Source: Hormiphora californensis
Taxonomy: Eukaryota > Animalia > Ctenophora
Direction: 5' to 3'
DNA length: 64,000 bases
NCBI GenBank assembly: GCA_020137815.1
Contig: CM035350.1
Coordinates: forward strand, 4,340,001-4,404,000
Positions 42,701-64,000 of the stretch are shown piece after piece (position 1 is the stretch's first letter; every line of letters begins with the position of its first letter). The notes under the pieces were generated by a model. It had not been told where the DNA came from and did not search any database. It saw only the letters and a list, made by a program, of their open reading frames with translations. The position numbers were made by a program, and so were the translations under genes.

Positions 42701-45700
42701 CTCCTCCCATCACCCCTAACACCCCTCCCATCAACCCTAACACCCCTCCCGTCACCCCTAACACCCCTCCCATCACCCCTAACACCCCTCCTAACACCCC
42801 TGACACCCCTCCCATCACCCCTAACACCCCTCCCATCACCCCTAACACTCCTCCCATCACCCCTAACACCCCTCCCATCACCCCCATCACATTCCACACT
42901 GTACAGAGGGATGAGGAAGCTGGATTCATTCTACCCATCCTCGCCACCCCTCTCTACAACATTCCTCCCTGCCTCTGTGTCATCTACATCTTCGACTATC
43001 ATTGAAACCGGAATCCCATATGAATTTGACCCGTATGTGAAACCATTGCGCTTTGTTATATTATAATTGTGTTTAATTACAATTTAAGATAAACTTCTTT
43101 ATGTAATGACCCACCAATAACTTATTGTACTGTGTTTCTGTCTGATTTTACTATGTTTGCATTTCGGGTTTCGCATTGTTTTGTTCTCTCTCGCGAGTTA
43201 ACTTTTAATCTCATTCAGCTGGGTATAGCTCTGAGTTTTGGGTTTTGGGACACAATACCCATCAACTATTGCTGAGCAAATTTGATTAATATCCCCCCCC
43301 ACATGCCAATAATATCATCATTTAGACTTTCGTCTGATTTATATCGCTGCATGTTCATTGTTCAATCTGATAATGGTCCCACAATCGTTAAACCCAAAAC
43401 TAAACTCCCGATCTAAAACTCCCCCCCCCCCCCAGTGTACTGATGATCCACGAGCACACTGGCACAGAGAAGAGCAACATCTACACAAAGCAGATCCCAG
43501 ATCAGAGGGGGCACAGTAAGAAGTTTATCCACCTTGCTAAAAACTACAAACTTTCCCCTGAAACATTTGATGAGAGTTGCCTTCATAACGCTGAGGTTTG
43601 TATTATGGGGAGGGGGGATGAGTGGGGAGAGTATTTGATTAGAGTTGAGGTTTGTATTATGGGGAGGGGGAGGGGGAGCATTTGATTAGAGTTGTTTGGG
43701 GGGGGGACATGTTAATTGTTAATAAATCACCTCTTTTTTTCGATTTTGTTAATTAACGTTAATTAACAAAATTAACAAAATTAACAAATGCTAAAAGACT
43801 GTTCTTATCGGTTGATAATACGACTTTAACTGGTTTAATTTTATAGTTTAATGACTTACCTAACACATATATACCCAAACAAGGCCTCTTCCGGTAACCA
43901 AAGTCCGACATAAAGGTTTTTTGGCTCAAAATCGATAAAATCCAAAAGTTACAAATATTTCAATTTAGCGTATAAAATCTCACTTTAACGTAATTTTTTC
44001 ATAGATAATCGATTCTTTTAACGAAAGAAGATGATGTACAACGTTTCTGTTGGAAAAAGAAATACAATTTTTCAAAAATCAATTTTTTGGTCAAAGATTG
44101 AAAATTTGATTCGCTACAAATCCTTGTGTTTTTTTAGAAAAATTGATTTTTGGGATATTTTTGATTTTTAGGTAAATTCATGAGTTTTAGAGTTGGAAAA
44201 TGTGAATTAGGGTCATTTGACTTCAATTGCGGTTTAGTTTAGCTAGTTTTTATTAAAAGGTACACAATGGAACAAATCGCTGTAGAAAAGCCGTAGTAGA
44301 GGTAGTATGGGTATGCAAATCGTGCAGAAGGAACAACTTTGCTCGCAGAACAAGTGTTTAATACCAAAAACACGTGCTAAAGGGGATTTAGATGGCATAA
44401 ATGGCATTTGTTAACGTTTGTTAACTTTTTGTTAATTTTGTTAATAAATCACCTGCTTTCTCGATGTTAATATTAACAAAGTTAACAAAATTAACATGTC
44501 CCCCCCCCCAGTTGTTTTCATAACGCTGATGTTTGTATTATGGGGAGGGGATGAGTGGGGAGAGCATTGGCCTGAGCCAAGCTGAGATGATCCCCCTGGC
44601 CCTTTACACCATCCCTAATCCACTAATATCTTTTGCTGAGTTTGGAATCTAACAAAACCACATGAATCATCTCCCTTTCCTCTGTTGTTTAGTAACAACA
44701 ATTCCTTTCCTAGGTGGCTGAATCCCAGGGGCTCCTTCATGCGGCATCTAACTGGCGTCTTCTCACCGTCCTCTTTACAGACACACAGGTCGTCCTGCCA
44801 TTCTATGATGGGGAGATAAACTTTGAAAATCAACGCAAACTGAAACGCTCAAGTAGGTCTCGGTGGTACCTAGATCTATCATTTTAGCTAAGGCTGCCCT
44901 TGCATTTCTCACAATTCTCCCTGGACTCTGGAGGTTGACCATTGTCATTCTAAAACCAGGGTTGTGTTTCCTTCGAATCTTAGCACACACCAGCAGTATT
45001 CTCTGATCAGGGAGGATATCAGTTGTTATGTTCCTTCTTTCCATTTGTATGCGCGCGAAACACAGTGTAGCTAGGCAAGATATCAGTACCAGACACTATG
45101 ATTTAGAAAATCTTCCATTGCAGATACACAGTCGACTGACAGGGGTAATGTGATTTCCTCTGACCAATCTCTGGAGTCTCCAAACATTGAGTCAGACAGT
45201 GACCACACAGACTATAATTTCGGGTAAGAAATTTAGAGAAAAAACCTTGTAACAAATTTTAAGCAAATAAAATAAATTACTAATTGTCTCCTATCAGTCG
45301 GAGCTCCTTCGTAGAGGACCAGAGAAGGTTAGAAGAAGAAGACGACGCTAATGATGAGGGTGATATCCACAACGAATCTCAACCGGTATGTGATACCGTC
45401 CCGGTATGTCGAGCAAGGCAAGTGAGGCCGGGATGGTATCACATACCGGCCCCACTTGCCTTGCTCGACCCTGTTAGAACATCCCCCACCCGATATTTTG
45501 CCTAATTGCCCGTGTGTGTGTGTGTGTATATGTACCTCCGTACTTCCATCCACACTGCTGACGTTGGGGATCAGCTAGCCCTTATTTCCGTAGGATCTCC
45601 CCTTGGCGCCCACACACCGACAACCCGAGCGCCGACCCACACCCCCAGGTCAAAGCCGCCTTCAGTGTTCAAACGGGTTACCCCGTTGTCCCCTCCGACA

Positions 45701-48700
45701 GCGATGACCTTAGAGATGCAGACCGACAGACGATCCTACTTAATAAGTTCTTGCATAAATCCTACCTACGACAGCGGATGCACTAACACAAGCGTGTCAG
45801 TCTTACGTTCCTGGGTTGTCCCAGGTGTAGGTAGTTGCCGAACGATAGCGACGTCTCCATAACTAGAGCGTCTCACTATTTTTTCACTCCCGCATTGCCT
45901 TGTTATGGCTAATACCTTATGGTTTGGGTATAGCGGGAGGGGTCGGTCCACCGAGTCGTTCGCATGCATTTGCATTTGAAGAGGAGTCGGCCCATGTGGC
46001 ACTGTTTGTTATTGGGTTCCATCTAGAATAGGGGTACCAATACCATATCTCTAGTGGCTGGCGACTTTGCAGTTGTGATTACCGTTTCCAGTACTGTTGC
46101 ATACCGTTTGGTTTCAGATCCGACCTGTTATGCTCAGGGCTTTGCGACTTGGCTGTTGTTGAGGCTATCTGTGACGGATCGATTTTTTTAGGGAGGGGGG
46201 AGGTAGCCTTTAGTGACTCATCGGAGTAATCCAGACTTCGTAATCAGTTTTGCTGGGGTTGCCGTTACATATATTGCAGTGGTGCCATGTTATTGTGTTG
46301 TCGTGTGAGACAGTGGTGCTCCGTTTTTGGGGTTGTTGTATAATGCAGTGGTGCCCCTTTTTTGAGGTTGCCGCGTGAGACAGTGGTGCCCCATTTTTAG
46401 AGTTGCCGTTTAATGCAGTGGTGCCCCGTTTTTGGGTTGTCGTATAGTGCAGTGGTGCCCCGTTTTGGGGTTGCCGTATAGTGCAGTGGCGCCCCGTTTT
46501 TGGGTTGCCGTATAATGCAGTGGTGCCCCGTTTTTGGGGTTGCCGTATAGTGCAGTGGCGCCCCGTTTTTGGGTTGCCGTATAATGCAGTTGTGCCCCGT
46601 TTTTGGGTTTGTTGTATAATGCAGTGGTGCCCCTTTTTTGAGGTTGCCACGTGAGACAGTGGTGCCCCGTTTTTAGAGTTGCCGTATAATGCAGTGGTGC
46701 CCCGTTTTTGGGGTTGTTGTATAATGCAGTGGTGCCCCTTTTTTGAGGTTGCCACGTGAGACAGTGGTGCCCCGTTTTTAGAGTAGCCGTTTAATGCAGT
46801 GGTGCCCCGTTTTTTGGGTTGCCGTATAATGCAGTGGTGCCCCGTTTTTGGGGTTGCCGCGTGAGACAGTGGTGCCCCGTTTTTGGGGTTGCCGCGTGAG
46901 ACAGTGGTGCCCCGTTTTTAGAGTTGCCGTATAATGCAGTGGTGCCCCGTTTTTGGGTTGTCGTATAATGTAGTGGTGCTCCGTTTTTGGGGTTGCCGTA
47001 TAGTGCAGTAGCGCCCCGTTTTTGGGTTGCCGTATAATGCAGTGGTGCCCCGTTTTTGGGGTTGCCGTATAGTGCAGTGGGTTGCCGTATAATGCAGTTG
47101 TGCCCCGTTTTTGGGTTTGTTGTATAATGCAGTGGTGCCCCCCTTTTTTTTTAGGTTGCCACGTGAGACAGTGGTGCCCCGTTTTTAGAGTTGCCGTATA
47201 ATGCAGTGGTGCCCCGTTTTTGGGGTTGTTGTATAATGCAGTGGTGCCCCTTTTTTGAGGTTGCCACGTGAGACAGTGGTGCCCCGTTTTTAGAGTAGCT
47301 GTTTAATGCAGTGGTGCCCCGTTTTTTGGGTTGCCGTATAATGCAGTAGTGCCCCGTTTTTGGGGTTGCCGCGTGAGACAGTGGTGCCCCGTTTTTGGGG
47401 TTGCCGTGTGAGACAGTGGTGCCCCGTTTTTAGAGTTGCCGGGGGGGGGGGGGACATGTTAATTGTTAATAAATCACCTCTTTTTTTCGATTTTGTTAAT
47501 TAACGTTAATTAACAAAATTAACAAAATTAACAAATGCTAAAAGACTGTTCTTATTGGTTGGTAATACGACTTTAACTGGTTTAATTTTATAATTTAATG
47601 AATTATCTAACACATATTTACCCAAACAAGGCCTTTTCTGATAACCAAAGTCCGACATACAGGTTTTTTGGCTCAAAATCGATAAAATTGCAAAAGTTAC
47701 AAATATTTCAATTTAGCGTATAAAATCTCACTTAAACGTAATTTTTAAATTGGTAATCGATTCTTTGGACTTAATAAGATGATGTACAACGTTTCTGTTG
47801 AAAAAAGAAATAAAATTTTCCCAAAATCAATTTTTTGGTCAAGGATTGAAAATTTGCTTCGCTACAAATCCTTGTGTTTTTTAGAAAAATTGATTTTTGG
47901 GATATTTTTCGTTTTAAGTTAAATTCATGTGTCTTATTTAGTTTTTAGGGTGCGAAAATGTGGATTAGGGTCATTTGACTTCAATTGCGGTTTAGTTTGG
48001 CTAGTATTTATTAACATTTACAAAATGGAATAAATCGCTGTAGAAAAGCCGTAGTAGAGGTAGTAGGGGTATGTAAATCGTACAGAAAGAACAACTTTGC
48101 TCGCAGAACAAGTGTTAAATAATAAAAATACGTGCTAAAGGGGATTTAGATGGCATAAATGGCATTTGTTAACGTTTGTTAACTTTTTGTTAATTTTGTT
48201 AATAAATCACCTGTTTTCTCGATGTTAATATTAACAAAGTTAACAAAATTAACATGTCCCCCCCCCCCCCCAGTTGCCGTATAATGCAGTGGTGCCCCGT
48301 TTTTGGGTTGTCGTATAATGTAGTGGTGCTCCGTTTTTGGGGTTACCGTATAGTGCAGTAGCGCCCCGTTTTTTTGGGGTTGCCGTATAGTGCAGTAGCG
48401 CCCCGTTTTTGGGTTGCCGTATAATGCAGTGGTGCCCCGTTTTTGGGGTTGCCGCGTGAGACAGTGGTGCCCCGTTTTTGGGGTTGCCGTATAGTGCAGT
48501 GGCGCCCCGTTTTTGGGTTGCCGTATAATGCAGTGGTGCCCCGTTTTTGGGGTTGCCGTATAATAGTGCAGTGGCGCCCCGATTTTAGGTTGCCGTGGTG
48601 CCCCGTTTTTGGGGTTACCGTGTAATACAGCGGTGCCCCGTTTTTAGGTTTTGTTTATTGTCATAGGTATTTACTATTTTCTTTGATCATCTGGAAATCC

Positions 48701-51700
48701 AAAGAGTGTATGTCTTACGGTACTGGGGTTTTCCCAGAATTGGTTTTTGCCGAACGATAGCGCCGGGTCCTCACATATGGACGCGTCACGCTACTTGTAA
48801 TGAATCGATTTTCTTTTGGAGGTCGGCTTTGGCTCACCTAAAAACCCGGATTTCGTGGTCAAATTAAGTAGTTAGTTTAGTTAGATCTTGACTTTGTTCG
48901 GTGTAGGGTTCTTCTTTTGGTTCAGGTACGATGGTAAGGGTAGGTTCACCTAGTCTCCCTGTCTAGTATTCGGTATTTATCGTGTGTGTGTGTGTCGTGT
49001 ACCTCCCGTACTTCCACCCACTTGCTGTCGTTGGGGAGCAGCGATCCCTAGATTTCACAGTTCTCTCCTCAGGTCACCAACACACATGGCTGCCCAGAGC
49101 GCCGTGCTCGATCTCCCGGTCAGGTCCCACCAAGGTAGCGCCGGGTTTCCCCGGTACCCCTTAGTGGTACCCTTCCATTGGAAGACACGAGTCGACAGAC
49201 GAGAACTGTTTCGATAAAGAGCATGAAGGTCACCACCAACAGCAGGCGCACTAGTACTACTGTACCAGTCTTACGGTACTGGGTTTCCCCAGAATAGGTT
49301 AAATCGCCGAACGATAGTGCGCGTTCATCTTCACCATGATGAGGCACCATTTGTGCACTACCACCTGCCTGTTTCCAGGCGTGTACCTCTGATCGGGGTA
49401 CAGTGGTAGGGTTCGGTCCATCGAGTCGTCATAGCAGCTATGATCGAGTCGACCCAGGTGGCGCTGTTCTTTTTGTTTAGCCGATCTAGTTGTGGGGGGC
49501 CAGTCCAAAGACTAGTGACTTGGTTTTTATTGCGCTTTTGCTAGTTGCGGATTTGCTTCTGCCGTGATGGTTTCAACAGACTCTACCTGATGAGATCAGG
49601 GCTTTGCCAGTGTGCACTTTTAAACTACCGTTGGTATAGAATCATTTTGGTGGTAGCGTTATGTTTTATTTGAATAGACCGGATTTGGTGACTACGTTGG
49701 TGAGTTTCCTTAGTTCCAGTGGCTCGTCTTCATTGTAAATGTTTTCTTTGATGTTTTGATACTCTTGAGTGAATCTGAGGTGGTGAAGGTCAGGACAGTT
49801 TAGTAGTTTGTGTTTGGAGTTTTCTCTTTCCCCACATAACTCACAGTTGGGATTTATGGAAGGGTCTCTGTGGGAGAGGGCGCTTCCTAGGTTGTTCTGG
49901 CCCGATATGGCCAGTGTCAGACTTCTCATTGTCTTCTTGTTTTTGATTGTTAGTTTAGTGTTTTCTCTAATAGTCTTTCCGATAATCGTTGTGGTAAACT
50001 CAGAGTAATTTTTCGTCTTTAGTTCGGCGATTGTCCCTGTCTTGTGTTGTTGTTTCAGCTTTGTCGTTATTTGACTCTTTGTTTGTCCTAGTGCATTCTG
50101 GGTGTTTTTGCTGTTTGCAGTCGCTTGTTTTGCTATTTGGTCTGCCCTCTCATTGCCTTCTATGTTTGCGTGGGCCTTCACCTTTACTTTTTCTACGCCA
50201 TTATCTCTTTGCAGTTCGTGTATACTTCGTAGAGTTTCGGTTAGTTGTTTGGAGTTTGAGAAGTTTCTTGTTAGTCTTCTCAGTGTAGTGCTAGAGTCGG
50301 TGTGGATCACTAGGTGTGACTCCTTTGTTTCCATTTCTAGTAGTTTCTTTATTACCATATGTATTGCCAGTAGCTCTGCTTGGTTTATGGTGTTTTCGGG
50401 TGCAAGGGGCTCTTGAAGGATGATTTCCTGGTTATCCATGTAGATTATGGCTCCTGCTCCTGTCACGTGTGTTGAGTCTATCTTAATTCTTGACCCATCT
50501 GTGTACGCGTTTATTACTTTGTTCTTGCTCAGTTGGGAGTTTTGTTCAAAGGTTATATCGGTGTATTTTGTCTGGTCGATGGCATTAGGAGTTTTTAGGC
50601 TTGTTAAGAGTAATTTCATCGCCTTCGAGTGCGTTAGATGCGCTCTTTTTTCGTGGAAGGGGTCTGTCCACCAGTTTCCCTCAGCCTTCAGGTGTATGTA
50701 GTTGTTGATACTTTCTTTGTTGATATGGTAGGTGACATCGTCCACTCCTGCCATTGTGGTTAGCACTATGTGCTGAGTGTGTTCGTGTCCTCCGGTGATC
50801 CTTCGAGTGATAGAGTTCTGTGCTGCTTCCAGCTTCATCTTGAGTGTTTGGTTTTTCAGCGCTTTCTGTCCCCATATGCCTGCCCCGTATGTCAGGGTCT
50901 TCATAAGGATATTGTCGTGAACGTATCTGCCTTAGGCTGTGCTTATTCCCCATTTTGTTGTCATGAGGTGTCTCAGTGGTCTCGCAGATCTTTTAATTGT
51001 TTCTGTTTTATTTTGGACGTGGGCTTTGTAGTTTAAGTTTTTGTCCAGGGTTAAATTCCTAGATACATCGCCTGGTTTGTGACTGGGATAGTGTAGTGCT
51101 AGAGTCGGTGTGGATCACTAGGTGTGACTCCTTTGTTCCCATTTCTGGTAGTTTCTTTATTACCAATTGTATTGCCAGTAGCTCTGCTTGATTTATGGTG
51201 TTTTCGGGTGCTGTTAGTTTTCCAAAATCCAGTTTCTGGTTTTTGTCATATATGTTTTGTTGTATCGTGTATCGCCGATACTATCGGAAATTTAAATGTT
51301 TCAATATCAAGCAAAAGTGAAAAAAGATATCTATAAAGTCGCCTGACCGGGATTTGAACCTGGCATCTTATGCTTCTTAGCCCAGAAAGTGGCCATTAGA
51401 CCACGGAGCTGTTAGGTACAGTGCAATTCAGATATACTTATCCTGTGCCGAGATTAGAAATTTTGGCAGAGGTTCCCCAGGGGCTCCTGGCCCCTACTCG
51501 GTTTTTCAAGAAAGTTCACCCGGCCAGATTCTGGCCCGCCGGTGCCTGTTATTGGAGCAACAGGAGCCCTTGCACAAAAGCTTTATTGGCACTTGAGTAA
51601 TGTTGGTATATATATACTAAGTGTTATCGTGTTGGTCGTAGGGCAGGATTCCCTCAATTTGTGTTAATACCATTTGTTACAGTTGACCGCACTTTATTGA

Positions 51701-53864
51701 TCCATCAGGCCCCAGGATCGCGGCTACGGGACCTATCCCTGGCCTTTCCCCAGAGAGACCTCCCTCCCCGGGTCCTTCCTGTGAAGGACCCGCAGCACCC
51801 ACCCCCCATGAGATTAGGCCCTAGGCTGCCACAGGGAGTCAGAAAATCCTGTCACCTGACTCCCCCCGCAGGGTATTTATCGTGTTAAATCGCCGGTATA
51901 ATCGGAAACTTAAATGCTTCAATATCAAGCAAAAGTGAAAAAAAAGATGTCTAATATTATAAATCTCTTGACCGGGATTTGAACCTGGGATCTTGTGTTT
52001 CTTAGCCCAACTTGTGGCCATTCGGCCACGGAGCTGTTGGTTCCAGTGCAATTCAGATATACTTATCCTGTGCCGCTATTTGAAAATTGGGCAGGGGTTC
52101 CCCAGGGGCACCATGCCCCTACTCGGTTTTTAGGAAGGGAACACCCGGCCAATTGATTTGGACCCGCCGGTGCCTGTTTTAGGGTGGCAACAGGAGCCCT
52201 GGCGTGTAAGCAATGGTGTATAAGCTACATATGTGTTATACGTGTTTTTTGGAACACCCGGCCAATTGATTTGGACCTGCCGGTGCCTGTTTAAGGATGG
52301 CAACAGGAGCCCTGGCGTATTAGCAATGTTGGCACTCCAAGTTCTGTTAAATAGACTTGAGTGTTGTGGTATAAGGTCATAGGGCTGGATTCCCTCTGTT
52401 TGGGCAATGCCGATTTATTGCAGGTTGACCGCACCCGTATTGGTCCATCAGGCCCCAGGACCGCGGCTGTGGGACCACTCCCTAGTCTTTCCCCGAGAGA
52501 TACCCTCCCCCTGCCCCCTCCCTAGTCCCCCGCGGGACTACCATACCCCCTGAGATAGACAATGGGCTGCCACAAGGAGTCAGTAATCCAGTCACCTGAC
52601 TCCCCCCACAGCTAATTGCCCGTGTCAGTTTAGTTGGGCTCTGGAGAACTCTCCAATGATATCAGTACATTGTACAACAGTCCACGCTTTTATTCCTACA
52701 ATTAATCCCTAAGTACTCCCTAGTCCCTAATAACACTCCCCCCTCAGCATCTAAACTGGGACATGCTGGATGCTGCGTTTCAACAACAAACCCTCAACCC
52801 CGAGAGTACTGAGTGTGACGATCAGAGTGACAAAAGCTCCCTTCCCGATACTGACCCTGCCTTTTACAGCTCATACGATGCTGCCCAGGTTGGTGTTGCG
52901 GGGTTGATCTACCGAACCCTCCCAGAGTGCGCTCGTCATTTTAAAATTAAATAGCGGTTTGACCACACAAGTGAGGGGTTACATCTAGCTAGATGTATGG
53001 TATGTGTACCGGGTGTGTTCCTTCCTCTTTATTTATAGGCAGCTGTGCCCAACAGTGCAAAATAAAATGATGTGCTAGATGCGAAACCTATCGGATAAAG
53101 TAGATAGCTGCCTCAAAATTGTTGCATGATTTGCTTTTGTTTCTTCCAAGAAGGACTAGACTGGTATCAATTATAATCGATTGGAATTCAAAAGCAGGTC
53201 TAGAGGCCCCCCAAATCAAAATCGTTCTTACATCCCCTCTCTATTGCCCTCGTTCATTACCAAGAGGACCACTCCCCCTCCCTTTCTTAACCCCATCCCT
53301 CCCCCTGCCCAGGAGAACCCATCTTCATTCCGGCACAACCGCACGGAAAACATCAAGATCAACATCAACTACAAGATAGGCTCTCTAACAATCGACATGC
53401 TGGAGGATCTGGTCGAGGAGGGAGATGTCCAGAGCGCATGTACTATGATCCTCGTCCTGGGATCCCGGTTAGATCGGGCTGTCATGGATTGTCAGGAGTA
53501 TGATATAGTGGACGAGACGGTGCCATGGTTCTACGCTTACCTGGATCTCCTATCCAGGTTCAGGTTGTGGAACATCCAGGCGGATATAGTTCAGAGGAGC
53601 ACTGATGCGATTAAACTGCTGAACAGTACTGGCGAGATTAGGGCGATGTGTGGTAAGCAGACTTGTTATCGACCCCTGAAGAGGGGGAATTGTGACAAGT
53701 GTGGTCCGGTGACAGTGTGCAGTGTGTGCAGGATGACGGTGAGAGGGGTGTTTTTGTGGTGTCAAGGGTGTGGGCATGGAGGACATTATGATCACCTGAA
53801 AGAATGGTTTACCACCCAGAGAGACTGTCCTGCTGCGTGTGGACATGAGTGTGAGTGGTCGTGA
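37574..53864 (+). CDS. WDR24: GATOR2 complex subunit WDR24 (WD40 propeller + C-terminal zinc finger/RING), 17 exons, ~815 aa
   Basis: Exons 37574-37627, 37757-37852, 37947-38029, 38144-38261, 38431-38574, 38837-38947, 39339-39479, 39718-39881, 40412-40461, 41667-41847, 42907-43032, 43436-43595, 44714-44852, 45124-45223, 45298-45385, 52748-52888, 53313-53864; all phases are consistent. WD repeats, CLHNAEVA, GDVQSACTMILVLG, YLDLLSRFRLWN and CSVCRMTVRGVFLWCQGCGHGGHYDHLKEWF..CPAACGHECEWS fit WDR24. Confidence 0.92.
40531..41177 (-). CDS. Secreted 178-aa prepro-protein (signal peptide, RHKR furin-type site), 2 exons, nested antisense in WDR24 intron 9
   Basis: Exons 41177-41054 and 40943-40531, phase 1 on both sides. 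MLARLLLIITIALSSVLS is signal-peptide-like; TATAAAAG at 41265-41258. Confidence 0.72.
41258..41265 (-). promoter_or_regulatory. TATA box upstream of the nested secreted-protein gene
   Basis: TATAAAAG on the minus strand, ~85 nt upstream of the ATG at 41177. Confidence 0.5.
42224..42890. repeat. 21-bp C-rich minisatellite (~31 copies) just before a WDR24 acceptor
   Basis: Unit acccctaacacccctcccatc. Confidence 0.95.
43698..44509. mobile_element. Non-autonomous DNA transposon (MITE) copy 1, poly-G/poly-C termini, 8-bp TSD
   Basis: TIR G(n)acatgttaatt(t)tgttaa; TSD agttgttt at 43690-43697 and 44510-44517. Highly similar to copy 2. Confidence 0.88.
46250..48650. repeat. ~35-bp minisatellite array inside the outer retroelement, interrupted by MITE copy 2
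   Basis: Unit gttgccgtataatgcagtggtgccccgtttttgg(g), with a gccacgtgagacagtgg variant. Confidence 0.92.
47442..48271. mobile_element. MITE copy 2, same family as 43698-44509
   Basis: Same TIRs and body; TSD agttgccg at 47434-47441 and 48272-48279. Confidence 0.88.
49666..51090 (-). pseudogene. RT thumb / RNase H / Cys-His finger remnant of a LINE ORF2
   Basis: YLG-TLDKNLNYKAH with a frameshift and stop upstream of 50904. RNase H motifs YTDGS, NQAELLAI, HTDS and VKAHANIEGNERADQIAK; CELC..HKLLNC. A second copy of ~120 bp of the RNase H region lies at 51091-51211. Confidence 0.88.
51340..51410 (-). ncRNA. tRNA-derived Pol III cassette inside the inner element (not a functional tRNA)
   Basis: A-box TGGTCTAATGG, B-box GGTTCAAATCC and a downstream T-run; the acceptor stem does not pair. 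Confidence 0.6.
51965..52035 (-). ncRNA. tRNA-derived Pol III cassette inside the outer element
   Basis: A-box TGGCCGAATGG, B-box GGTTCAAATCC and a downstream T-run. Confidence 0.6.
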
Positions 53865-57156: not shown

Positions 57157-58455
57157 TCACAGATTGATGAGTTTCAAGAACACGAACACCATCCCACTGC
57201 CAACAAAGAGCCCCAACGCACTACAAAACACCACTAACGTCCCAGCTCTAGTTTTCTCTGCGGCTCCCATCACACACTCTGGTGCATATGTAGACCCGGT
57301 GGAGAGGAGAACCCCGTTGGTCCACGCCAGCGCCATATAAAACACACCCGGGATCCAATCAGAGTGAAACCAAACGGGCAGAGTCCTGGGTTGTACATTA
57401 CACATCATGATAAGAACAATAAACACTGCTCTAGTCAGGGATAGTGGCAGGACTCTTTGTTTGGGGATGTGGATGCGGGCAGCCGTCAAGCAGCCCAGGA
57501 TGTCACCCAGACCGAACGTCAGGAAGATAATCACGGCGTACATGTACCCAGGAATATTGGATGTGGGGGTGATAACGGGTGCCGGGTAGCAGGAGAGGGT
57601 GATCACCAGGGTGATAAAGATGGAGAGACAGAACTGCCACGTCTGGGAGAACACATACCAGAGTGAGGGGGTCTTGTCCGTACTGCTATTAGATGAGATT
57701 GAGCTCCGGATACCATCCTCTGAGTCGCTATTAATAACCCCCTCATCCTCTCCGTCAGGTACTTGTGGTTCAATAAGACCCTGGGTCATGGCCAGCCTGA
57801 CCTGTCTGTTCCGGGTGAAGAAGAGCAGAAACACGGCCCCGCTGGAGAGGAGCAGGACACATGAAGTGAGGAAGAAGTAACACCCTGCACTAACCGGATC
57901 AGTATGAGCGAGGGTGAGTAACCCCAGAACTGAGTTTAGGAATCCAGCAGAGGATTGTCCTAAGATGAATCCTTGTGTTGCTTTAGGTCCCACCAACCCA
58001 CACACAACAAAGATGGCCGCTTTGAAGAGGGCTGAGAAACCTCCACTTAGACAGTAGAGGGTGGTAGTTAGCACAAAGTATCCATAGGCCCAATCCCAGG
58101 TGCTGATAAGCGCTGAGACAGCCAGGAAACCAAATATCACCACCGACCCGGTCAGACTTGCCAGCACGATAACGATGGTATGTTTGGTGGTTTTTACACT
58201 CAGCATGTAGGTGAGGTTTACCAGAACAGTACACGTTATCCCCCCAAACTGGAAGTAGCACCGGTAGTTGTCAACGATCTGCTGATCACCTATTTCCGTG
58301 TACTTCTGGGTGAAAAACCCAGCCGAGGAGAAGACCATATCAAAGGGAATGAGGTAGATAAATCCGAAGAAGGCGGCGGTAAGATAGAGTCCCCAGGAGA
58401 TTTCATCTGTAGGGGATGGTTTCCGGAGGAGTGGTGTTGTCTCTTCCCTTACCAT
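57157..58455 (-). CDS. Equilibrative nucleoside transporter (SLC29 family), intronless
   Basis: About 11 TM segments; ITLVITLSCYPA, FGLGDILG, RAVFIVLIMMCNVQPR..WFHSDW, WTNGVL..YAP..EKTRAG..LGLFVGS. N-terminal EETTPLL is an acidic-dileucine-like motif. An AG lies 10 nt before the ATG. Confidence 0.9.
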   Translation of the reverse strand: MVREETTPLLRKPSPTDEISWGLYLTAAFFGFIYLIPFDMVFSSAGFFTQKYTEIGDQQIVDNYRCYFQFGGITCTVLVNLTYMLSVKTTKHTIVIVLASLTGSVVIFGFLAVSALISTWDWAYGYFVLTTTLYCLSGGFSALFKAAIFVVCGLVGPKATQGFILGQSSAGFLNSVLGLLTLAHTDPVSAGCYFFLTSCVLLLSSGAVFLLFFTRNRQVRLAMTQGLIEPQVPDGEDEGVINSDSEDGIRSSISSNSSTDKTPSLWYVFSQTWQFCLSIFITLVITLSCYPAPVITPTSNIPGYMYAVIIFLTFGLGDILGCLTAARIHIPKQRVLPLSLTRAVFIVLIMMCNVQPRTLPVWFHSDWIPGVFYMALAWTNGVLLSTGSTYAPECVMGAAEKTRAGTLVVFCSALGLFVGSGMVFVFLKLINL

Positions 58456-59472
58456 AGTGATCGTCCTAGAATATAATACACGGATTAATAAGAGCAATTT
58501 AAGGCTTTTGTTTTGTTCAAATATGGTCGATCAAGGCACTAACTAAGGTGGATCAGGGACTGCAAAGTGAGCAATGCATACTTCACAGCCAGGCATATTT
58601 GCCGTAAAACAAACAAGTGAACTTCCGGATCCTAGTATTGCACACAGGGTCACGTTTTTACCAGGTAAACGTGAGAACACAAACACTAAACAGATAATGT
58701 CTGGGGCGAATGGGCATATTTAGGCCGCAAAAATAAATTATAAATCCCTTATGGTAGAAAGATAAAGATAGGGGTCATTCTGGAATAAAATTAATTCGCA
58801 GACTCCAAGCTAGAGAAAGTGGGACAGTTGGCTGTTTGGACAGCTTGTTGAGAAACTACACAGTCTTCAACTGCAGATTCGTGACCTTGCGACCATAAAA
58901 TAATCGAGTAACGGGCCCGGTAACCAAATTAAGTGTCATGTGAGACGAATTCCATGTTCCCTATGCAGTATGCTGCAAACCTCTGTATTTGGGAGCAGAT
59001 AGGGGATAATTCGAGGTCACGGAACATTTCAATATACCTACAACCCTTCAGTAATCCCCTTCCCTTGGTAAAGCAATTCTTATCTTTTATCTGCTACAAA
59101 TTTGCCACGTTTTTGCCTCGACGCTCGCCGTTGCATCTGTCAACATTAAATGCACAATTTGTAGCAAATATCAGAAAACGAGAGCTGTAGCTTGCTGCCC
59201 AGTGGCTATATACCGTACAGTACTATAAATAATAAAATCAATATCAGAATACAGAACACCCAGCTGCGTAAAGTTGGAAGCATCCGGGAAGCAAGTTACT
59301 ACAAGATCTAATTCTGACTAATAGCAGTGTTGGGCAAAATGAAAGAACTGCCTGACACACTATCAGTCACAAATAACAGCACTAACCGCTCTCACCAACA
59401 CTATCAGTCAGACCAATCTTTACTATCTGGGAATCTCTACTCAGAATCTCAGTTTCCTAGAAATCCTTATCA

Positions 59473-62397
59473 GTGATAAGAACACGCATAGGCACTTTCA
59501 ACTGCAGAACACTCCGAACAGCTGACAAAGTCAGCGAGCTGGCTTATCAATTCTCTAAACATGGTATTGGTCTTTTGGGTATCCAGGAGCACCGAATTGT
59601 CCATCCAGAGACTGTTAAGAGAACCCAGGCTGGGCCAGACTCAATCCTATTAACATCGACAGCCTGGCGGAATAGTGTGGGAGCGTCTGTTGGAGGGGTC
59701 GGAATCTTAATGGGGACCAATGCATCGAAGCTCATTGTTGAGACAAGAGTGGTTTCTAATCGGATCCTGGCCGTCACCTTCGCCGGCAATCCCAAGCTAA
59801 CGCTTGTTACCGTATACTCACCGACAGAAGGTGCCGAATTTGATGAAGTAGAACAGTTCCATAACGAGCTAAGAGAATATCTACACGAAGTACCTGCTCA
59901 CAATCTCCTGATTGTTTGTGGCGACTTCAACGCTCGCCTTGGTTGGGAAGGAACTAGTTCTGGATGGTACTATCATCGTACCACCAGCCGTAACGGTGTC
60001 CTTCTGAAGGAAACTATGGAGGAAACCAACTTGGAGGCCACCAACATTAGATTCCGGAAGAAGAAGAGTCGTTTGTGGACATTCCTGTCGGACGGGACAC
60101 AGCGGAAGGCCACCCTGGATTATATACTAATAAGGAAGAAATGGAGGAATAGTATTAAGGACACCACGACGTCCGAGGCGTTAAGCTCCCTTGGATCTGA
60201 TCATCGGTTGCTTATCGCCAAGGTCAAACTCACCCTACGGAAGAGGAAGACTCTGCCAGGAAGACCGAATCTCGACTATGGTCCTCTCAGAACCGACCCG
60301 GACCTGAGGGATCGTTTCTCTGTTGAGGTTCACAACCGATTTTCCTGTCTAACATCTACTGCTGAAGACGACCCAACTACGAACTATGGTCACTTCATTA
60401 GCGCAGTACAGGAAACGAGTAAAGCTCTCCTTGGGAAGAAGCGAAAACGTCTGAAAGACGTTGTGGCAGAGGACTATAGAGTTAAGCGAGTGAGGACAGA
60501 GTTGGAGTGTGCCAGTAAGGAGTATCACGAAGCACCAGACGAGAGGACGAGGACCAGAGTAAATAGGGCGAAGGAGGGGTTAGCGGGGGCCTATGGAGAG
60601 GTTGAGTCGGAGATTATTGAGGGTAAGATTAGGAGGGTAGAGGATGCTGCTAGGAATGCTAAGTCACGAGAAGTTTGGAGGATAGTTAACGAGGTCTCTG
60701 GTAGAAACCTGAGGACAGCTAGTCAGTTGGAGGGGGGCTCACCGGAAGAGAGGAATGATATATGGTTGAATCACTTCCGAACCCTACTAGGGTCTACACC
60801 ATCAGGGTCATCAGACACGGAAGTCGAACAGCTCTTCCCCCCGGCAGACATCTTCACTGGCAGCTTCACTCTTGAGGAATATCAGAGGGCCAAGAAGAGG
60901 ATTAAGGAGGGGAAGGCTTATGGGGATGACAGCATCCCTCCTGAGGTTCTGAAAAGGTGTGATCTGGATGAGATAGTGCTGGGGTTTTGTAACGGTGCTT
61001 TAGAAGGTAAAGGTATTCCAGAACAATGGACAGTGAGTAACATCATTCCTGTCCCGAAGAAGGGCGACCTGTCCAAGCCTGGGAACTACCGTGGTATTGC
61101 ACTGACTTCAATAGTTGCTAAAACGTTGAACAGGATGCTACTACATCGCATCCGGCCCTATATTGAGACTAAACTCCTTGACTCCCAGAACGGATTCCGA
61201 GAGGGACGCTCAACCACCAGTCACATCTTAACACTGAGGAGGATACTGGAGGGTGCGAGGAAGAAACAACTCCCGGTAGCCATGGCTTTCATCGACTTTG
61301 TTAAAGCCTTTGATAGTATCAACCGTTCCAGCCTGATCAAAATCTTAAGGGCATACGGCATACCAGATGCTATCGTCGATCTTATCCAATGGCTCTACAC
61401 TAACACCAAAGCGCAAATCCTTACAGCCGACGGCGTTACTGCTATATTTGAGATCGTGGCTGGTGTCTTACAAGGCGACACATTAGCCCCGTATCTCTTT
61501 ATCATAGTGCTGGACTATTGCTTACGGATAGCACTCAGTAGACACCCGGAGATCGGTTTCACTCTGAGACCTGCTAGGAGTAGGAGAGTTGGGGCATCCA
61601 GAGTTACTGACACTGGCTTCGCGGATGACGTGGCCCTGCTGGCAAACTCGGTTGAGGAGTTAGGGGTTTTACTTCGTGAGGTTGAAACGGTATGTAAGGA
61701 GGTTGGTCTGGCTATTAACCAGAACAAAACGGAGCTCATAGTGGAGAACATCCCAGATCCAGAGCCGCTTCTTACCTGTGACGGACACACCATCAAAACA
61801 ACCGATGACTTCAAATACCTGGGTTCGTGGATCAGAGATTCGAACAAGGACATCAAGAACCGGAAGAGTAAGGCATGGGTTGCCTGCCACGGCTTGAAGA
61901 AAGTCTGGAACTCAGATCTTAAAGACGAACTCAAGTGTAGGTTATTTGTTGCTACTGTCGAAACCGTTCTCCTATACGGATGTGAGACCTGGACCCTCAC
62001 CAAACAAATGGAGAAGAGTTTGAATGGAGCTTATACTCGTATGTTGAGAATGGCACTTAACAAGAACCAGTGGCAACTCCGCATGACTAATGGCACGTTG
62101 TATGGTATTGGAGGGTTACCCATTCTCAGCACTAAAATAGCGGAACGAAGACTACGACTTGCCGGACATGCACAACGCCATCCTGAGCTGACCCTCCACA
62201 AAGTCCTTCTTTGGGAACCGCTCCATGGTCAAGCCAAACGTGGCAGGCCCTCGAAAACCTTTGTGGATGTTCTACGGCAAGATACGGGTCTGGGAGACGT
62301 GAAGGAGATAGCTTCAGTTATGGAGGAACGTGATGCGTGGAGAAAACTTGTTCAAGGCGTTCGGGAATTCCACCCGCCTTAAGTCAAAGTAAGTCAA
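59473..62397 (+). mobile_element. RTE-type non-LTR retrotransposon, single uninterrupted APE-RT ORF (59473-62382)
   Basis: APE motifs IGTFNCRTL, GIQEHR, GDFNAR, LDYIL and SDH; RT motifs NYRGIAL, QNGFR, FIDFVKAFDS, GVLQGDTLAPYLF, FADD and FKYLG. Very short 3' end with aagtc repeats; candidate TSD agtgataa at 59472-59479 and 62397-62404. Confidence 0.92.
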
Positions 62398-62472
62398 GTG
62401 ATAATAATGACATGTTTTCATTAGAAATGGTGATCCGATCTTGCCCTTTTACTTCTAGAAACACTCGAGAAT

Positions 62473-62629: not shown

Positions 62630-62995
62630 GAGTAACACGTGTAACGTACCTCTGCCATTGAGTAACACGTGTGTAACGTACCTCTGCCATTGAGTAACAC
62701 GTGTAACGTACCTCTGCCATTGAGTAACACGTGTAACGTACCTCTGCCATTGAGTAACACGTGTAACGTACCTCTGCCATTGAGTAACACGTGTAACATA
62801 CCTCTGCCATTGAGTAACACGTGTAACGTACCTCTGCCATTGAGTAACACGTGTAACGTACCTCTGCCATTGAGTAACACGTGTAACGTACCTCTGCCAT
62901 TGAGTAGCACGTGTAACGTACCTCTGCCATTGAGTAACACGTGTAACATACCTCTGCCATTGAGTAACACGTGTAACGTACCTCTGCCATTGAGT
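62630..62995. repeat. 30-bp minisatellite, ~12 copies
   Basis: Unit gagtaacacgtgtaacgtacctctgccatt. Confidence 0.95.
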
Positions 62996-64000
62996 GTGTG
63001 TGTGTGTGTGTTTTGCACCGCCCGTCATTCCTCCCACTTTACTGCCCCACAATGGTCGGCAGACAACCTATATTAATATTTGGCCACATTGATGCCTGAG
63101 TGAGATCGAGGTCGCGCAGCGACCGAGATCGATCTCACATCTAGGCCTCCGGCGCGTTATTGATTTTAGAGCAAACTTTTTCAAAGACCTGGCTGCAAGG
63201 AACTACCGAACCGATTTGCATCTCGTTTGTTGCTCCTGGCAGATAATTGTCTCTAGTTTTACGGAAAATACCCGCGAGTATCAGCATTTGAGGAATAGTG
63301 GGTCAAAATTGACGCTAAACATGAGCAATTCTTTAAAGACCTGGCTGCAAGCTCCTACTCGGTCCTGGGACAATCTGCGGGTACTGGGGGAATCGTCATG
63401 GCCTTGTGAGTATGGGAAAATACCCGCCGATTCATCACGATGCGAAATGAGGCCATAATTGATCTTTGAGCAGTGCTAGGTCAGCTAAAAAGGTCTCCAA
63501 AAACGGTCTATCACGCGCGATCTGCTGAAAACGTGCTTTAATATCGCGCGCACGTGAGTTCTTGCTCTCAACGGACCGGGATCCTATTATTCGCGGAGCG
63601 AGAATAGGATGCGATGGATCCAATATTAATATCACTCTTCGCCACCGTCCCCCACACGTAGGGATAATGTTGATGTTGTTCCGGTTTGGGTCCTGGTATT
63701 TTGTCGAGCAAGCTCAACATTTCCCTCGAACCTTCGCCGGCATCACAAGAAGAGTATTTGATACAGTGAATCTAATATTAGACTGACATACCTATATTGT
63801 CAGGACAATGGATGGAATTTACCTGTCTCACAGACTGGTCTTTGGTTACTACTGCTCCAGGGAGCTGTAGAGGTAGGTGGGTTGCCGGATATGACAATAC
63901 CGTGGGTTCACCATCTAATCGGTGACGGCTGAAATATCTTATCACACCTCAGGTCTTTGGTCAAAACCGCTAGCAGTACTTATCAGCATGCAACCTGGGG

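Follow-up and report, generated by a model that had tools for sequence, protein, structure and literature searches.

A multi-domain predicted RNA fold spans the entire 3' UTR of a LINE with RNase H, and that of a sister family, in a comb jelly

The window (the whole 64-kb stretch of DNA analysed here, from the comb jelly Hormiphora californensis) contains two nested LINE-derived elements, both on the minus strand, with the inner element (48986-51871) lying within the outer one (45516-52611). Each element ends in a (CA)n tail and is flanked by a target-site duplication, and the empty inner site is bridged by a contig from a DNA run (48985 joined to 51271). The following features make up the two elements.

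45502-45515 and 52612-52625: target-site duplication of the outer element, 14 bp, beginning ACACG on the element strand
45516-45527: (CA)n tail of the outer element
45528-46217, minus strand: complete 3' UTR of the outer element, 690 nt, of a sister LINE family, with the same predicted fold as the inner UTR
46218-46250, minus strand: last ten codons (KLITKSGLLR) and stop of the sister family's ORF in the outer element
46270-48645: 35-bp minisatellite within the outer element, into which an unrelated repeat of ~0.8 kb (about 47445-48260) is inserted
48972-48985 and 51872-51885: target-site duplication of the inner element, 14 bp, beginning ACACG on the element strand
48986-48995, minus strand: (CA)n tail of the inner element
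48996-49665, minus strand: complete 3' UTR of the inner element, 670 nt, a multi-domain predicted RNA fold directly after the ORF stop (49666-49668)
49666-51144, minus strand: LINE ORF remnant of the inner element (end of RT, RNase H and C-terminal cysteine motif), with a stop near 50932 that breaks the frame
51035-51253, minus strand: RNase H fragment, duplicated, at the junction of the inner element's internal deletion
51255-51871, minus strand: 5' module of the inner element, composed of the LINE 5' UTR (about 51445-51871) and a tRNA-like unit
51320-51440, minus strand: tRNA-like unit of the inner element, with an upstream TATA-like stretch, A box, B box and T6
51886-52611, minus strand: 5' module of the outer element, composed of the LINE 5' UTR with a 113-bp internal duplication and a tRNA-like unit (51938-52065)

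A preliminary description of this DNA had assigned the 3' region to a retroelement, and we can now define it as the complete 3' UTR, from ORF stop to tail, of an RNase H-bearing LINE. The ORF remnant of the inner element matches the Pfam RNase_H family (E-value = 3e-16) and is 54.5% identical to residues 983-1443 of P0025, a full-length relative of 1443 aa in which Pfam domains place AP endonuclease, RT and RNase H in a single ORF. The closest named relatives are proteins of Pleurobrachia bachei (50% and 41% identity). The outer element has no ORF beyond its ten terminal codons, which resemble the C-termini of relatives P0001-P0008 and P0025; since the outer UTR begins behind such family-like codons, it represents a sister family's 3' UTR in full length. 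Between the two elements the 5' modules are 78% identical and the 3' UTRs 61% (376 of 616 aligned letters), a disparity that would fit an exchange of tails. In two DNA read runs, 2515 and 1768 contigs with many variants fall on the inner element, so that the family has many copies; contig depth is no copy number. In one RNA read run under the same species label no contig fell on it, which is no proof that the element is silent. The inner element inserted at an ACACG site that terminates the 5' module of a relative (48985/51271; 51873-51890). The same site is present in the inner element's own 5' module, and therefore the family can nest in itself.

The window contains several other features. 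The unit of the 35-bp minisatellite (46270-47441, 48273-48645) bears a faint likeness, possibly due to chance, to an invariant core motif of the 3' UTR (model R1, E-value = 0.87). The A+T-rich repeat of ~0.8 kb that interrupts it occurs in two copies (47445-48260 and 43698-44484) that are 86-96% alike, and is probably a non-autonomous DNA element. On the plus strand, an unrelated LINE at 59473-62400, which we take to be RTE-like, encodes an endonuclease and RT in a 969-aa frame with no RNase H, and has a very short UTR and a short repeat tail. A nucleoside transporter gene (57157-58497) is 95% identical to an EukProt protein whose 'sb' identifier has the form seen in two Pleurobrachia bachei proteins, which points to a host in or near Pleurobrachia.

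In both elements the tRNA-like unit has intact A and B boxes, an invariant TATA-like stretch upstream and a T6-T8 run. In contrast to SINEs, where such a unit stands at the head, here it is internal, located in the inner element about 430 nt behind the 5' end. It is not a tRNA gene, as ARAGORN finds no tRNA in it. L006, a copy of the element from a metagenome contig, shares part of the 5' UTR and lacks the tRNA-like unit. The unit looks like a captured Pol III unit. Structure is present in the 5' UTR too (minus strand, 51445-51871 and 52070-52611), where a strong hairpin forms the 5' terminus and some changes are compensatory; a rough descriptor finds no HDV-like fold there, and Rfam has no match.

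The RT motifs of this comb-jelly lineage presumably resemble those of LOA elements. The lineage as a whole looks LOA-like, an assignment resting on these motifs and on the order of domains, RT followed by RNase H, which the cited passages give for LOA, TRIM, Bilbo and Lian as well as CiLOA (PMC2790886). In a quick tree built from 51 of 126 RT rows, with no named LOA reference among them, P0006 and P0025 formed a separate supported group among unnamed relatives.

The predicted fold of the 3' UTR comprises, from 5' to 3', a weak domain A, hairpins B and C, domain D, hairpin E and a junction of P0, F and G. Parts of it are given below in the coordinates of the inner element.

49307-49416, minus strand: domain D, in which helix D0 (49416-49411/49312-49307) closes D1 (49409-49358, itself branched) and D2 (49337-49314)
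49250-49292, minus strand: hairpin E (49292-49279), 5' strand of P0 (49276-49272) and hairpin F (49269-49250)
49015-49248, minus strand: large 3' domain closed by helix G (49248-49242/49021-49015)
49197-49193/49104-49100: helix J0
48996-49021, minus strand: terminal motif carrying the 3' strands of G and P0, common to the inner, outer and fourth elements

The domain enclosed by G contains helix H (49208-49201/49065-49058), a long arm with a conserved GNRA hairpin cap (49154-49141), a side hairpin whose loop reads UGUG(U)G (~49080-49086) and, in addition, hairpin I (49042-49024). Around hairpin F, P0 and G are predicted to pair the last ~35 nt of the UTR with strands located 230-270 nt upstream. 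The strands adjoining G and I have alternative pairings, and two copies do not suffice to choose between them. The pattern of the terminal motif is found at 49021, 45553 and 63037 only.

Several lines of evidence support this fold. Both UTRs are more stable than shuffled sequences (inner z = -3.74, outer z = -2.86; in each case none of 20 shuffles was as stable), with stability concentrated in 49050-49449 (z = -5.2 and -3.3), while the 5' ~200 nt are no better than shuffles in either copy (z = +1.2 in both). When each UTR was folded alone on the element (minus) strand, 69 of the 184 confident pairs of the inner copy (p > 0.5) recurred in the outer one within three alignment columns. The corresponding null, in which identical columns are kept and variable ones shuffled, has a mean of 17.1 (sd 10.1, maximum 41 in 33 runs). 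On the plus strand 39 of 183 pairs are shared, which is within its own null (mean 17.2, maximum 43, 31 runs); with an excess on the sense strand only, a function of the plus strand was rejected.

Sequence changes between the copies tend to preserve the pairing. In 17 helices registered by hand, 67 of 103 pairs are invariant, 19 are changed on both sides, 10 are changed on one side with pairing kept and 7 are broken; helix J1, which has no outer register, was left out of this count. Double-sided changes affect two of seven pairs in D1, two of eight in F and, in the hand register, six of eight in H. Helix G has one double-sided and two one-sided changes with no pair lost. The stem of hairpin E is invariant in three lineages and its loop variable. 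In the unedited MAFFT alignment, where helix H is out of register, 11 of 97 pairs are changed on both sides (4.0±1.5 in shuffles, with none of 500 reaching this value, and 0-2 in slid controls). Both double-sided counts lean towards the structure, because it was derived from the same sequences, and the covariation comes from two full lineages, a third being partial. The UTR of L006, which is 98% identical to the inner copy, carries 13 substitutions, two of which form a compensatory pair in helix B and three of which keep pairing in the long arm; against the model, one disrupts a D1a pair and another costs a candidate helix near B its terminal pair. Among the read variants listed, at least four UTR positions vary, too few for covariation analysis. 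Taken together, and as far as two lineages can show, the modelled 3' UTR fold is real.

The preliminary description had proposed a multi-domain structure far larger than the usual LINE stem-loop. Folding stability and shared pairs bear this out, except that the 5' ~200 nt are weakly folded. The helices it had named in the inner copy (49057/49201, 49358/49403) and in the outer one (45590/45732, 45887/45933) are all in place. So are its short motifs, gtcttacg and gccgaacgatag at three places (outer element, third remnant and inner element) and the remaining three at two. Only one of the GNRA loops is conserved (49141-49154/45673-45686). In the outer copy the counterpart of the gcctg-GAAA-caggc loop is not a GNRA loop, and the CUGGG/CCCAG hairpin has a different loop in each of the three copies. 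The outer region does contain the matching fold, but its true end is at 46217 rather than 46150. Similarly, the third copy of one module that had been placed at ~48712-48762 is present but larger (about 48710-48826), and is preceded by an ORF-end remnant of its own. This remnant and a further element near the end of the window each share a part of the UTR.

48686-48880, minus strand: third remnant, with a frameshifted ORF end (about 48835-48880) followed by the compact core D0-D2-E and the 5' strand of P0 (model match, E-value = 3e-9)
62994-63070, minus strand: 3' end of a fourth element, which has a (CA)n tail, the terminal motif given above and an equivalent of hairpin I

The third remnant retains a core of only ~120 nt, which includes D2 and D0, and lacks A, B, C, D1, F and everything 3' of F; it may be either a natural compact UTR or a deletion product. 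The fourth element shares only the last ~60 nt (model R2, E-value = 5e-4), and upstream of these, towards the end of the window, it has a different large fold (z = -2.73). This element (62994-64000, minus strand), which is cut by the window end, also has an internal duplication and a long-range helix at about 63630/63070. Directly behind its tail, at 62630-62995, lies a tandem repeat with a 30-bp unit (12 copies, 97%). An E-P0-F-G-like arrangement at 63952-63902 is a lead only: the descriptor was drawn after the match had been seen and also matches 41 of 2000 shuffles and 3 of 94 other stretches, and model R1 finds no E or F in the fourth element.

Two non-autonomous partners, neither encoding a functional protein, share the fold with the LINE. 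In the outer element the 5' and 3' ends of a LINE are joined across an internal deletion and flanked by the target duplication. In L006 the 5' UTR and ORF start are fused to the last four ORF codons, followed by the whole UTR, as the result of a separate internal deletion; its target duplication lies off its contig. Thus, the whole UTR, from 4-10 codons before the stop, is kept in both bipartite derivatives seen. Several of the relatives P0005, P0007, P0008 and P0153 are RNase H-only or rearranged frames on contigs of 2.1-2.7 kb, and P0153 starts with residues read from UTR-like sequence, which suggests many internally deleted or nested derivatives.

To place the fold among known RNAs, we searched Rfam, as the preliminary description had suggested. 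No family reached its gathering score in the 64-kb window, and the UTR fold is without a matching family. At E-values up to 10, a search of 45000-53000 with 4227 families returned only ten sub-threshold miRNA-like matches at 45400-45475, outside the elements. Their source is a near-perfect inverted repeat of ~60 nt (45405-45470) just beyond the outer element. Catalytic RNAs were also considered, with rough descriptors, and rejected, none having an Rfam match. The HDV-like descriptor matches neither 5' module, and its matches in the 3' regions are not common to both copies. Both hammerhead core motifs occur on the minus strand of the inner element and neither in the outer one, while the patterns for domain V of group II introns and for the R/S core of group I introns have no match.

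A motif scan of metagenome contigs gave seven loci, one of which, L006, is a real copy; the other six have no similarity beyond the pattern and read like bacterial coding DNA. Viral contigs gave no match to two DNA patterns, and none of 74 candidates held up by protein alignment. Prokaryote genomes yielded only five bacterial RNase H-like loci (26-33% identity), and phage records no match. In a literature search with limited coverage of subscription journals and repeat databases, we found no description of this LINE family or of the fold, and no comparable 3' fold for the LOA clade.

The region is a structured LINE 3' UTR, probably of the stringent type and thus of a known kind, though no family model matches it and it is unusually large. 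Three roles had been offered for it, an RT-binding scaffold, a ribozyme and a translation element, and the first fits best, given that the fold occupies the whole 3' UTR and is kept in non-coding derivatives. None of the tests made favours a translation element. The UTR fold is probably a cis-acting handle through which the LINE's protein recognises its own RNA and brings the (CA)n tail into position for target-primed reverse transcription. Consistent with this are its position behind the ORF stop, the sense-strand bias of pairing, the covarying helices, the retention of the whole UTR and the 14-bp duplications beginning with ACACG. Both target sites begin with sequence that the tail matches, which would be expected of a tail that primes by pairing with the nicked strand. 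Retention of the whole UTR by non-coding derivatives points to a cis role in mobilisation and not in translation alone.

In such a handle, P0 and G would bring the last ~35 nt back to hairpins E and F, which lie 230-270 nt upstream, thereby placing the start of reverse transcription beside the most invariant sequence, the D0/D2/E junction. The endonuclease-RT-RNase H protein would read the invariant unpaired motifs at this junction, and the (CA)n tail would pair with the nicked strand ending in CGTGT to allow priming. The peripheral arms (A, B, C, D1 and the GNRA-capped arm) may brace the core or protect the RNA, and could vary or drop out. Non-coding derivatives such as the outer element would move by keeping the whole UTR of a partner family.

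Known systems provide precedents for parts of this scheme. According to the cited passages, the R2 protein binds 3' UTRs of divergent sequence and shared architecture (PMC11601368, PMC11194090), and bipartite non-autonomous LINEs have been described (PMC5786205). As in R2, the whole comb-jelly 3' UTR has divergent sequence and a common architecture, and adjoins a short tail predicted to pair with the target primer. In contrast to R2, whose 3' UTRs measure 248 nt in R2Bm, 292 nt in Gf3 and 210 nt in R2Pm in those accounts (PMC11601368, PMC11194090), the comb-jelly UTR is two to three times longer, with 17 hand-registered helices and nested junctions; its protein is of the AP-endonuclease/RT/RNase H type, its tail a (CA)n repeat and its target something other than rDNA, and it has no Rfam match. 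SART1Bm of the R1 group, an AP-endonuclease LINE of the same broad group, also has a long 3' UTR (at least 461 nt), which contains stem-loops and short motifs that resemble the target and are presumed to anneal to it, but its end is poly(A), its target the telomeric repeat, and the passages cited describe two stem-loops rather than a covarying multi-domain fold (PMC7265360). In stringent L2-clade elements such as UnaL2 and ZfL2 a tail structure is likewise common to the LINE and its non-autonomous partners; there, as described, it is a single stem-loop (PMC1636434, PMC4176376), whereas here the shared part is the entire ~680 nt. Like the bipartite LINEs of RTE, Ingi, Vingi and R2, the outer element and L006 keep LINE ends around an internal deletion, with an apparent exchange of tails between families. 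The 2018 paper gives, in the passages cited, only these four clades for ORF-less bipartite elements (PMC5786205), and the present lineage differs from them in having RNase H, in looking LOA-like and in carrying its tRNA-like unit inside instead of at the head.

A handle for RT does not by itself account for all of the structure. In R2, as reported in the passages cited, the terminal 65-98 nt or two stem-loops suffice (PMC11601368, PMC11194090), so that recognition does not explain 670 nt of conserved helices. Furthermore, retention of the whole UTR is known from two cases, and the third remnant does without over half of the fold. Alternatively, the fold might replace a poly(A) tail in protecting the 3' end or in enhancing export or translation, with the protein reading the last ~60 nt only. 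We regard this as unlikely, but it ranks first among the alternatives. AATAAA is absent near the end of the outer and fourth elements, and the single one of the inner element lies 530 nt upstream and is altered in L006; the tail is (CA)n, the UTR exceeds known RT handles in size, and the UGUG(U)G loop, found at the same place in both copies, could form 7 bp with the tail. On the other hand, this loop-tail pairing shows no covariation, Rfam has no match to translation or stability elements, and whole-length UTRs in non-coding derivatives speak against a role in translation only, not against one in stability.

A more far-reaching and rather improbable proposal is that the UTR represents a new class of large tertiary-folded retrotransposon RNA, with a compact invariant core (D0-D2-E and the P0/F/G junction) and exchangeable arms. 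Such an RNA would itself make or guard the 3' end of a non-polyadenylated LINE transcript, by catalysis or by a clamp of the UGUGUG loop on the (CA)n tail or on the displaced target strand, and would then hand the RNA to RT.

A catalytic role is doubtful, in which the UTR, as a large ribozyme of a class not yet described, would set the 3' end of the transcript by cutting it at the (CA)n tail or close by, or by processing it in some other way. Unpaired motifs of 8-12 nt, invariant in three lineages, occupy helix junctions, and the GNRA-capped long arm, nested multiway junctions and detachable compact core are typical of tertiary-folded RNAs. Protein contacts would be equally expected to leave invariant motifs, however, and tails that vary in length and merge with the target make a precise cut unnecessary. 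The ribozyme role offered initially finds no known signature in the descriptors or Rfam: the UTRs have no HDV-like fold or hammerhead core common to both copies, no group I/II motif and no Rfam match. According to the passages cited, ribozymes are frequent in retrotransposons, though at the 5' end (PMC5786205).

Just as doubtful is a model in which function resides solely in a small core plus the terminal 60 nt, the remainder being a weakly selected structured spacer that keeps the RNA compact, with retention reflecting where deletions happen to land. The third remnant does join its ORF end straight to D0-D2-E, the interior of the fourth element is unrelated, and the 5' third of the UTR is no more stable than shuffles. 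Against this, most double-sided changes sit in the peripheral helices H, D1, C1 and the GNRA arm, and therefore imply selection on their pairing. Finally, chance pairing in two related G+C-rich repeats, selectively read, is highly improbable: at loose thresholds hundreds of short helices co-locate on either strand (276 on the minus, 434 on the plus), which makes co-location as such uninformative, and registration by hand favours pairing, but with the copies folded independently the count of shared pairs lies above all 33 nulls on the sense strand, and on no other, and helix H remains paired with six of its eight pairs swapped.

The choice of RNA by non-LTR proteins is known mainly from R2 and L2, where a few small stems suffice. 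The comb-jelly elements offer a natural series of two full folds, a compact core and a distant element with only the end in common, that is, ready-made constructs for mapping, and template modules from elements of this type are relevant to tools for RNA-based gene insertion. The lineage is an RNase H-bearing clade in an early-branching animal lineage, and a 680-nt UTR in which distant helices are under pairing selection suggests that the RNA has a further job or that its RNP interface is much larger.
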